A stretch of DNA of 64,000 nt from a virus. Lineage: Duplodnaviria; Heunggongvirae; Uroviricota; Caudoviricetes. The stretch lies in IMG/VR virus record IMGVR_UViG_2880395615_000010; one strand, written 5' to 3'. Numbering within the stretch: position 1 is the stretch's first letter; each line of letters starts with the position of its first letter. This document shows, piece by piece, positions 38,842-40,133 of the stretch. The translations under genes and the position numbers were made by a program. The notes under the pieces were generated by a model. It was given only the letters and a program-made list of their open reading frames with translations. It was not told the DNA's origin and searched no databases.

Positions 38842-39267
38842 TCAATGTACTGCCACAGCATTTCCTGCCGGGCCACCACGGTTCATCTGATTGAAACCGG
38901 CGATTGCCACTGCGACAAAATCATCAGCGTCTCTCACCAATCGCTCCCGCGTCTCCACCAGCTCCCGAAAATAAGCTGAACTGTGGCTGCGCATTCTGGC
39001 CACCAGCAAAGGTGGCATTGCCTTTTCGATCGCTGGTAACAACGCCTGAATTTTTTCAACTGCATCAGGGGTGTCTTTCTCTACCCAGCGGAAAATTTTC
39101 TGGGTATTGCGAGCCAGGGCTTCCGGATGGCTGTCGTCATACAGTTCAGGAAACGTCATACCCAACTCAAAATAAGCCTGGGTTATTCCAGCTGCTGGAA
39201 CTTTTTCGCCATCAGGACGCGCCCAGGCATTCATCGCCATGCGGATGTGTTCATGCTTGATTTTCAT
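38842..39267 (-). CDS. ydaT: YdaT-like protein, 141 aa
   Basis: N-terminus MKIKHEHI matches my recollection of K-12 YdaT; overlaps the upstream HTH gene. Confidence 0.6.
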   Translation of the reverse strand: MKIKHEHIRMAMNAWARPDGEKVPAAGITQAYFELGMTFPELYDDSHPEALARNTQKIFRWVEKDTPDAVEKIQALLPAIEKAMPPLLVARMRSHSSAYFRELVETRERLVRDADDFVAVAIAGFNQMNRGGPAGNAVAVH

Positions 39268-39532
39268 GAATCAAGCTCCTAGTAAGTGGTTGTGTTAACG
39301 TTTTGGTATCTTCCAGCTCGGGCCAAATATTCATCCAATCAAAAGGCCTTAGTTGCTGACGTGTAACTTCACCATTACTGGCTCGCTCAATAAGGACACA
39401 TAACGATGCCCCTAAGATTTGACCTTTACTCAATGCCTTTCTTAGATAACCGATGCTAGTACCACACTCACATGCAAACATACGCTGTTCATCTGACGAA
39501 AGAGAATTGAGAAATATTCTTAATTCTTCCAT
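39251..39532 (-). CDS. Cro/YdaS-like HTH regulator, 93 aa
   Basis: HTH segment CGTSIGYLRKALS; divergent from the repressor-like gene. Confidence 0.6.
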   Translation of the reverse strand: MEELRIFLNSLSSDEQRMFACECGTSIGYLRKALSKGQILGASLCVLIERASNGEVTRQQLRPFDWMNIWPELEDTKTLTQPLTRSLIHENQA

Positions 39533-39632
39533 AGCTACTCCTTAGTAAACACAGCAAAGAATACCCACAGGTAAACAAAAGTCAATACCCCTAGGTTGTT
39601 TACCTTGCGGTAATCGCATCTATTATTTACCT
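39533..39632. promoter_or_regulatory. Divergent promoter/operator region of the immunity switch
   Basis: Inverted repeat ggtaaacaa...ttgtttacc plus repeated TTACC motifs between divergent HTH genes. Confidence 0.45.
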
Positions 39633-40052
39633 ATGGACAAATATGAATTTAGACGACAACAACTCATCAAAATTCGTGATGAGAAATGCGATGGTAAAGC
39701 GGTTAACGTGGCCAGAAAGATCGGTCGCGAGCCTTCTTATGTATCAAGAATGTTGTACCCAGAGGGGAAAAAAGGAAAAAAACGGATCGCTGATGATATG
39801 GTGGAGATTATAGAAGAGTCCTTTGGGTTACCCCGGGGATGGATGGATGGTATCGTTTCATCATCAACGAACACAGCCTCCAATTATGAAACAAGGGTTC
39901 TAACGCCACGACAACGTATTTTTTTAGATCTCTTAGACGAACTGCCAGAAAGTGAAGCGGATAACTTATTAAAAACTCTTGAAGAGAAAAAACAGTATTA
40001 CAATATGATCTACGAAGAAATCCGTAAAAAGAAAGCACAAAACGCATCATAA
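39633..40052 (+). CDS. Prophage repressor-like HTH protein without a peptidase domain, 139 aa
   Basis: HTH KAVNVARKIGREPSYVSRML; no Ser/Lys dyad region. Confidence 0.55.
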   Translation: MDKYEFRRQQLIKIRDEKCDGKAVNVARKIGREPSYVSRMLYPEGKKGKKRIADDMVEIIEESFGLPRGWMDGIVSSSTNTASNYETRVLTPRQRIFLDLLDELPESEADNLLKTLEEKKQYYNMIYEEIRKKKAQNAS

Positions 40053-40096
40053 CTCACCAAACAACCAGTCACCAGTTAAGACACATCAAAAAAAAT

Positions 40097-40133
40097 TACC
40101 CATGGGTATTTACTTTTTAAATACCCATGGGTA
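40097..40133. promoter_or_regulatory. Two copies of the perfect 12-bp palindrome TACCCATGGGTA forming a 37-bp inverted repeat
   Basis: tacccatgggta at 40097-40108 and 40122-40133. Confidence 0.5.

Follow-up and report, generated by a model that had tools for sequence, protein, structure and literature searches.

The stretch of DNA analysed here, 64,000 nucleotides of a virus of the class Caudoviricetes (IMG/VR record IMGVR_UViG_2880395615_000010; hereafter the window), contains a compact regulatory locus composed of three genes and a pair of palindromes. The central gene (39633-40052, + strand) is an open reading frame (ORF) for a 139-aa repressor that matches PHROG 5736 (E 5e-70); it is annotated in RefSeq as a 'hypothetical protein', and no domain is recognized in it by Pfam. 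It is divergent from an ORF on the - strand for a 93-aa Cro-like repressor (39251-39532; PHROG 35 'transcriptional repressor', E 5e-23), which is followed on the same strand by the gene of a 141-aa YdaT/CII-like regulator (38842-39267), the first 17 nt of which overlap the end of the Cro-like gene. On the other side of the repressor gene, beginning 44 nt after its stop codon, there are two copies of the palindrome TACCCATGGGTA (40097-40108 and 40122-40133), both with 0 mismatches; the pair comprises 16-nt arms that are 100% complementary and a 5-nt loop, 37 bp in total. The three genes and the double palindrome had been listed in an earlier model-generated reading of the DNA (the original prediction), and all of them were found where it had placed them. 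Further along the + strand lies an early-left operon, ydfA-ydfB-ydfC-DicF-dicB (40320-41610), recognized from RefSeq annotation, Rfam and the Pfam family DUF1391. The whole region (38800-40900) is 100% identical to prophages of E. coli O157:H16, O55:H7 and other strains, its annotated, 100% identical counterpart in RefSeq belongs to a lambdoid prophage, and the immunity cassette was found in 821 of the 5,426 complete E. coli genomes. Very probably, the locus controls immunity in a lambdoid E. coli prophage of the Qin/dicBF type, and the palindromes are the left operators at its early-left promoter (PL).

The two palindromes conform to a motif, TACC-N4-GGTA, whose exact form occurs four times in the 64-kb window against 0.33 occurrences expected; none of 100 shuffles reached four. 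All four exact sites fall in 39562-40133, within 572 bp, and a fifth site with one mismatch starts at 39586. The intergenic region between the repressor and cro genes is 100 bp long and holds three of the sites (starting at 39562, 39586 and 39601), which we named right operators (OR): OR1 (TACCCACAGGTA, 39562-39573, exact), OR2 (TACCCCTAGGTT, 39586-39597, one mismatch, with a degenerate right half) and OR3 (TACCTTGCGGTA, 39601-39612, exact). Because the other exact copies of the motif sit between these two genes, the palindromes, OL2 (40097-40108) and OL1 (40122-40133), appear to be one half, the left (OL) half, of an OR/OL operator set. Two of the features by which a lambdoid immunity region is recognized were found: a palindromic operator is repeated several times between the diverging repressor and cro genes, and the same operator family is present again at the early-left promoter (40097, 40122). 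The perfect double palindrome is a peculiarity of the window allele, for in three other E. coli alleles of the cassette the second copy reads TACCTATGGGTA; most operator substitutions among the E. coli alleles fall in the central N4.

The operators are interleaved with predicted promoters. A promoter scan called, each at 9/12, PR on the - strand (-35 TTGACT at 39585-39580, -10 TATTCT at 39563-39558, 16-nt spacer) and PRM on the + strand (-35 TTTACC at 39599-39604, -10 TATTAT at 39621-39626, 16-nt spacer); OR1 is located in the spacer of PR, OR2 abuts the -35 element of PRM and OR3 overlaps it. PL, the putative counterpart of dicBp in Qin, was identified by eye on the + strand (40109-40137), with the -35 element TTTACT (40109-40114), a 17-nt spacer and the -10 element TATCCT (40132-40137). 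OL2 lies directly upstream of this -35 element, OL1 is contained in the spacer and its last two bases overlap the -10 element, and a run of eight A residues further upstream (40089-40096) resembles an UP element. The start points of PL and of the other promoters are those that we infer from the sequence. The repressor ATG (39633) is 7 nt past the -10 element of PRM and is preceded by no Shine-Dalgarno sequence, for which reasons the PRM transcript of the repressor is probably leaderless, as in lambda.

A comparison was made with nine related loci, from Salmonella, Pantoea, Klebsiella-like bacteria, Yersinia, Serratia, a metagenome and the cultured coliphage mEp043. DNA was fetched around loci of the S24 type, whose repressors carry an S24 peptidase domain (Salmonella, Pantoea, Klebsiella-like), and around loci of the short type (Yersinia, Serratia, metagenome); the cI protein of mEp043 is of the S24 type. 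All nine encode a homologous repressor DNA-binding domain and a homologous Cro and exhibit the same motif at the same two places, exact copies being confined to the repressor/cro intergenic region and the early-left pair with the exception of one intragenic site in the Serratia locus L012. The sites of the early-left pair are 25-26 bp apart, the counterpart of OR1 is located 71-72 nt before the repressor ATG (46 nt in L008 and L009) and that of OR3 in most cases 32 nt before it, and a middle OR site with a degenerate right half is present in seven of the nine loci, while L008 and L009 show none. Among 44 sites, A2, C3, C4 and G9 are invariant, position 10 is G in 43, and the central four bases follow YRYR; the operator consensus predicted for the repressor dimer is a 12-bp TACC-YRYR-GGTA. 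The promoter register around the pair is fixed as well (OL2, a -35 element, a 17-18-nt spacer containing OL1, and a -10 element formed from the last two bases of OL1 onwards), and the scan found it as TAGACA-17-TATATT in mEp043 (10/12), TTTACT-18-TATATT in Salmonella and TTTACT-17-TATATT in Yersinia.

Between the repressor gene and the pair several relatives have acquired morons, a ParE-type pair in Salmonella and genes occupying 1.4-3.9 kb in Yersinia and Serratia; despite these, the operator pair keeps its place directly before the early-left operon. The repressor regions of mEp043 and of the Pantoea prophage are followed by a canonical terminator, and from there it is ~70-100 bp to the operator pair. 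In mEp043 the pair is followed by a hairpin that can be read as a lambda-type nutL boxB and then by the N gene, which places the pair at PL; no report of the operators of mEp043 was found in the literature. The cro gene, OR, the repressor DNA-binding domain and OL thus seem to be inherited together, as a unit that therefore deserves the name of an immunity cassette. The view that the palindromes are an operator rather than a terminator, put forward by the original prediction, gains from the motif fronting the early-left operon at a 25-26-bp spacing in all nine loci. What the prediction had not seen is that the palindromes would be the OL half of a known arrangement, that they overlap the predicted promoter of a dicBF-type operon, and that they have terminator-like flanks. 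As a separate observation, L006 (Pantoea, 4755-4780) and L016 (mEp043, 3552-3577) exhibit a wider inverted repeat upstream of the OL pair, TTACCTGAAA-N-CAGGTAA, i.e. TACC-N14-GGTA, which might serve as a third operator with another spacing; nothing equivalent is present in the window.

The downstream limit of the immunity-specific DNA can be estimated from the common 5' leader of the early-left operon (40144-40319, + strand), which is shared with heteroimmune prophages. Matches to this leader come from ~3,700 of the 5,426 complete E. coli genomes and start at window positions 40144-40162 (query positions 612-630), and in phage Tritos the same ~160-nt leader stands behind unrelated operators, while a Rac-type prophage has it between racR and ydaF. 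Judging from these matches, the immunity-specific DNA stops ~10 bp past OL1, where the heteroimmune-shared leader begins, and the boundary at ~40144 is the place where the PL transcript would start. A put- or nut-like structured RNA was considered for the leader (40140-40325) and rejected, as the stability of its fold does not exceed that of shuffled sequences (z = +1.3) and it has no Rfam match; the leader (40144-40319) is nevertheless well conserved.

Some features of the locus speak against the interpretation of the palindromes as operators at PL within an immunity switch. The hairpin that the OL2-OL1 pair would form in RNA (40097-40133, 37 nt, + strand) is strong (-24.5 kcal/mol), it is preceded by an A-run and followed by a T-rich tail, and it is the sole terminator-like element between the repressor gene and ydfA. 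The PL candidate of the window has 8 of the 12 consensus positions, which is under the threshold of the scan, and was not called by it. Finally, no antirepressor was found in the window, and the induction step is drawn by analogy.

The features of the hairpin would be accounted for if the 37-bp inverted repeat were mainly an intrinsic, possibly bidirectional, terminator that ends the repressor transcript and insulates the toxic dicBF-type operon, an explanation that we consider unlikely. The fold of the hairpin deviates strongly from shuffled sequences (z = -6.8), it contains 16 pairs, and the terminator scan flags it on both strands, with the tail TCCTTCCTTT on the + strand and T8 on the - strand; the statement of the original prediction that no T-run follows the repeat thus holds only in part. 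No other terminator is present between 40052 and 40320, and in other E. coli alleles a G-U pair preserves the pairing and the tail, TCCTTCTTTTC, is richer in U. On the other hand, the U-tract on the + strand is broken by C residues, a hairpin of this kind arises of itself wherever two near-palindromic operators have half-sites in common, and termination would not explain why the 12-mer is found again in the OR region. The stem and the T-rich tail of an intrinsic terminator are present, but their position relative to the 3' end of the repressor gene is not kept in the relatives, where the pair may lie 1.4-3.9 kb away from it, before the early-left operon, and mEp043 and the Pantoea prophage have their separate canonical terminator upstream of the pair. 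A secondary role in termination could possibly coexist with the operator role. Rfam matches on the hairpin (mir-2041, SSRC8_2) were far under their gathering scores and were discarded as an effect of the palindrome.

The sites might also be genuine operators that serve the Cro-like protein or YdaT and not the 139-aa repressor. The Cro-like protein, described in the original prediction as 'Cro/YdaS-like', is Cro-like according to PHROG 35 and its likeness to the mEp043 protein, while the Pfam model YdaS_toxin (PF15943) gives it 25.8 bits, below the cut-off of 30; it seems better described as an mEp043-type Cro than as YdaS. It is 52-70% identical to the Cro proteins of the six related loci compared and co-varies with the motif as tightly as the repressor DNA-binding domain does, and in lambdoid phages Cro and cI share operators. 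As to its neighbour, membership in the YdaT family follows from the Pfam model YdaT_toxin (PF06254; 39.6 bits, cut-off 21), from similarity to solved structures (PDB 3c4r, E 8e-89; the nearly identical YdaT of CP-933P, 8bt1, E 4e-79) and from the presence of the YdaT primary operator OM at the cro/ydaT junction; in PHROGs the protein matches family 163, 'CII-like transcriptional activator' (E 3e-45). The OM copy, TTGATT-N6-AATCAA (18 bp, 39257-39274), is exact and is the sole match with 0 mismatches in the window, and footprinting of the YdaT of CP-933P has established this motif and located it at the ydaS/ydaT junction (PMC9986795). By analogy, this site would mark the position of a PRE-equivalent promoter directed at the repressor gene. 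YdaT would therefore have an operator of its own, different from the motif in question, the repressor N-terminus with its invariant recognition helix is co-inherited with that motif in S24-type as well as DicA-type forms, and the shared use of the sites by Cro belongs to the preferred explanation rather than competing with it, all of which makes an assignment to Cro or YdaT instead of the repressor quite improbable. We regard as negligible the likelihood that the palindromes arose by chance or are related to a restriction site, without a regulatory role, for although the NcoI site CCATGG is present in each of them and a single palindrome of 12 bp may well be fortuitous, four clustered motifs stand against 0.33 expected, and the relatives keep TACC/GGTA and vary the centre, so that CCATGG itself is not conserved.

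According to the AlphaFold model (mean pLDDT, the predicted local distance difference test, of 86), the repressor begins with an XRE-type helix-turn-helix (HTH) domain (residues ~1-75); residues 76-87 form a disordered linker, and the C-terminus (92-138) is a helical hairpin of the DicA type with helices at 92-103 and 106-138. Of the 5-helix N-terminal domain, helices are modelled at 3-18, 23-30, 34-40 and 54-63. A Foldseek search with the model retrieves XRE-type repressors, with the Rep chain of the Rep-Ant complex of Salmonella phage SPC32H (5d50) as the best, albeit weak, match (E 9e-4). None of the Pfam HTH models detects the HTH, and its presence, asserted by the original prediction, is borne out instead by AlphaFold, Foldseek and homology to the N-termini of annotated cI proteins. 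No S24 peptidase (PF00717) was found in the repressor by Pfam or in the AlphaFold model, its place being taken by the predicted DicA-like hairpin, in agreement with the prediction of a protein without a peptidase domain. Residues 84-136 match positions 79-131 of the NCBIfam DicA model (E 2.5e-5), a partial match for which the whole-protein score is 24, far under the 101-bit cut-off, and BLASTP aligns the C-terminus to that of DicA at 33% identity (E 1e-7). A sequence search of the PDB with the repressor returned only chance-level Z-alpha/ADAR1 matches, and a search with a profile of the C-terminal domain returned none, i.e. no solved relative of the DicA-type C-terminal domain is detectable by sequence.

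Two kinds of relatives were recovered in protein searches. Those of the first kind (135-145 aa) are similar to the repressor over its whole length, while those of the second (221-242 aa) carry a LexA-like S24 domain and share with it the first 75-85 residues at 65-85% identity; in the latter, SAG and GDSM motifs can be read by eye from the alignment. The predicted recognition-helix residues S35, Y36, R39 and M40 are invariant among 34 homologues. An exhaustive search with the C-terminal hairpin alone yielded 40 clusters, nearly all of them proteins of 125-216 aa that terminate in the module; it occurs on at least 30 other XRE-type repressors with diverse, HTH_3-type N-terminal domains, and the motif L-(S/T)-P-R-x3-L-L-x-L-F-x2-L-P-x-S-E is common to 32 proteins with the DicA-type C-terminus. 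The repressor therefore looks like a chimera of a DNA-binding domain from an S24-repressor family and a DicA-type C-terminal hairpin. Such an exchange of the C-terminal domain appears to have occurred in at least two immunity groups, because the N-terminal domain of DicA itself is 58.7% identical to that of the S24-type P22 c2 repressor. With its size, an XRE-type HTH, no S24 domain and a DicA-like C-terminus, the repressor can be placed in the DicA/Gifsy class of short, non-cleavable prophage repressors, for which ~130-160 aa, an XRE-type HTH and the lack of an S24 or Ala-Gly/Ser-Lys cleavage apparatus are diagnostic; all three were found. Among the database 'proteins', P0013, P0016 and P0019 begin with MNLDDNNSSKFVM, in the +1 frame of the repressor gene (window 39643-39813), and then switch to the repressor frame; frameshifted repressor alleles therefore circulate in E. 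coli, and the prophages that carry them may lack repression or be mis-assembled.

Since the S24 domain is missing, the structural model would exclude self-cleavage of the repressor, and because the protein cannot cleave itself, induction probably proceeds by an antirepressor or by a Cro-driven flip. Induction by a route other than RecA-mediated cleavage, suggested already in the original prediction, is a reasonable inference by analogy, and such induction has been established for the DicA/Gifsy class. Repression by DicA is lifted by the antirepressor Rem and does not respond to mitomycin C (PMC10448788), while the repressors of the Gifsy prophages remain uncleaved and are removed by the LexA-controlled antirepressors GfoA, GfhA and GftA (PMC3121763); the known routes of the class are thus an antirepressor or a spontaneous or stress-triggered flip via the Cro-like partner (PMC10448788, PMC3121763). 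The antirepressor search proposed by the original prediction was run on the window and produced no candidate with sequence support. No Rem homologue was found when K-12 Rem was compared with the ORF at 34853-35125 and, by tblastn, with the whole window; no DinI-linked module was found by tblastn of the window with a DinI query; no LexA box precedes a small ORF in the window according to a weight matrix built from LexA sites; and the small ORFs of the nin region belong, by Pfam and PHROGs, only to families of unknown function. The prophage might still encode an antirepressor of divergent sequence, or a different prophage might supply one in trans.

Two other elements were noted in the course of this search. 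The ORF at 34853-35125 (- strand, 90 aa, PHROG 1212 of unknown function) lies between hokD and the DUF968 gene, the slot occupied by rem in Qin; it has no detectable similarity to Rem and is an antirepressor candidate by position only. The best LexA-box-like site of the window, AACTGGATATTTTTACAGTA (32270-32289), has a score within the range of true sites for this matrix and falls inside codons 3-9 of a DNA methyltransferase gene (31248-32297, - strand), which the Q-like gene and a terminator immediately precede; the site may link this late-region gene to the SOS response, or be due to chance.

In the annotated counterpart of the locus, the - strand order is cro-like, ydaT-like, replication initiator, DUF977, hokD, DUF968, RusA, Q-like, lysis and head genes, and the + strand order is repressor, ydfA, ydfB, ydfC, DicF, dicB, ydfD, 3'-5' exonuclease, xis and int. 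On the + strand of the window, RefSeq annotation of the 100%-identical locus places ydfA at 40320-40475, ydfB at 40477-40605, ydfC at 40635-40853 and dicB at 41422-41610, the last being followed by ydfD, the 3'-5' exonuclease gene and int, while the small RNA (sRNA) DicF (41196-41247) is recognized by Rfam (76.7 bits, gathering score 48). A sub-threshold Rfam match to another sRNA, STnc100 (41245-41454; 38.7 bits, gathering score 47), comes directly after DicF and overlaps the region upstream of dicB. Behind the first integrase gene a second lambdoid prophage follows in tandem (~45700-64000), with tail genes and genes of EspJ/TccP-type effectors; it is 99.7% identical to E. coli O55:H7 CB9615, and long stretches of the window at 4.5-17 kb and 49.8-63 kb nearly duplicate each other. 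Where the tandem prophages meet, no intact tRNA-Ser was detected by ARAGORN. The chromosome NZ_CP051001.1, a carrier of the 100%-identical prophage, contains ~30 kb away a second, degraded prophage (L014, 3659466-3665708) with an authentic dicC-dicA and the same ydfA-dicB-exonuclease-int arm, so that one chromosome harbours two heteroimmune versions of the same control region.

In the switch that we propose, a dimer of the 139-aa repressor would bind the three OR and two OL sites of 12 bp; when bound at OL it would block access of RNA polymerase to PL, and as long as lysogeny lasts this would prevent expression of the ydfABC-DicF-dicB-exonuclease-int operon, a cell-division-inhibitor operon of the dicBF type. 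Competition by the Cro-like protein for the same sites would make the switch bistable, and YdaT would act as the CII equivalent via its exact operator at the cro/ydaT junction. With the operator TACC-YRYR-GGTA, the promoters and the class of the repressor named, the switch can be annotated and tested.

A further idea, which we hold tentatively, is that the DicA-type hairpin is a portable module that replaces the S24 peptidase on several immunity groups, namely the mEp043/TACC-N4-GGTA group in the present case and the P22 c2 group in the case of DicA. If this were true, the repressor should recognize the operators of those SOS-inducible phages whose repressors have the same DNA-binding domain and should act in trans as a non-inducible repressor, giving immunity to such phages; during DNA damage it could silence an inducible prophage that belongs to this immunity group and resides in the same cell, and the C-terminal module would be a docking surface for an antirepressor. 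The chimeric repressor itself illustrates how the specificity of immunity can be retained by a prophage when its response to DNA damage is altered or lost, which bears on the crosstalk among prophages in multi-prophage strains, e.g. of the O55/O157 lineage.

The closest known system in terms of organization is dicC-dicA-dicBp of Qin, which has the same gene order and the same operon (ydfA, ydfB, ydfC, DicF, dicB, ydfD), and in which DicA represses dicBp via operators downstream of dicA (PMC10448788). Both repressors are short and without a cleavage domain (135 aa in DicA against 139 aa here), their C-termini are homologous, and in both systems operators are found between the divergent genes and again beyond the repressor gene, where the promoter of the operon lies (PMC10448788). 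Their DNA-binding domains, however, are unrelated (the N-terminal alignment is not significant), the Cro proteins differ as well, and the Qin operator, which by eye looks like TTAG-N-CTAA, contrasts with TACC-N4-GGTA, of which the Qin region contains no exact copy and two scattered one-mismatch matches. The CII-like partner is an intact YdaT in the window, whereas ydfX/ydfW are listed at this place in K-12 Qin, and the window prophage, unlike Qin, lacks a detected Rem homologue. Control regions of both types occur in tandem prophages of one genome.

For the specificity of the switch, the closest relatives are mEp043 and the S24-type repressors of Salmonella, Pantoea, Yersinia, Edwardsiella and Klebsiella, whose DNA-binding domains are 65-85% identical to that of the window repressor over ~80 residues and whose Cro proteins are 60-70% identical to the window Cro; operators, OR/OL geometry and embedded promoters are the same. 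The repressors of this group have 221-242 aa and carry PF00717 where the window repressor has the DicA-type hairpin, and, given their SAG and GDSM motifs (read by eye), they should be induced by RecA-stimulated self-cleavage. Moreover, mEp043 has N with a putative nutL boxB and a lambda-type CII, unlike the window. With respect to class, the window repressor resembles other small, non-cleavable lambdoid repressors, i.e. GfoR, GtgR and GfhR of Gifsy-1/-2/-3 and Rep of the Rep/Ant system of SPC32H (5d50), and DicA and RacR have been grouped with the Gifsy repressors before (PMC3121763); the LexA box-dinI-antirepressor-irsA module of Gifsy was not found in the window. PaaR2-YdaS-YdaT of CP-933P is related through the nearly identical YdaT, whose footprinted operator is exact in the window at the same junction, but there paaR2 is followed by a ParE-type toxin-antitoxin pair, and the window repressor directly by OL/PL and ydfA.

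In the OL/PL regions of lambda, 434 and P22, as in the window, palindromic operators flank and overlap the early-left -35 and -10 elements and belong to the same family as those at OR, and neighbouring sites are 24-25 bp apart from centre to centre. The window differs from them in having two OL sites rather than three, in a distance of only 15 bp between OR2 and OR3, and in sites of 12 bp with conservation of the four outer bases in either half. Seen against these systems, the window locus represents the Qin-type dicBF control region in a heteroimmune form; the arrangement is known and involves no new mechanism. What it adds is modest: a common repressor had been left unannotated, its predicted operator can now be stated, and immunity specificity and induction mode appear to have been shuffled independently among the prophages with which it is compared here.

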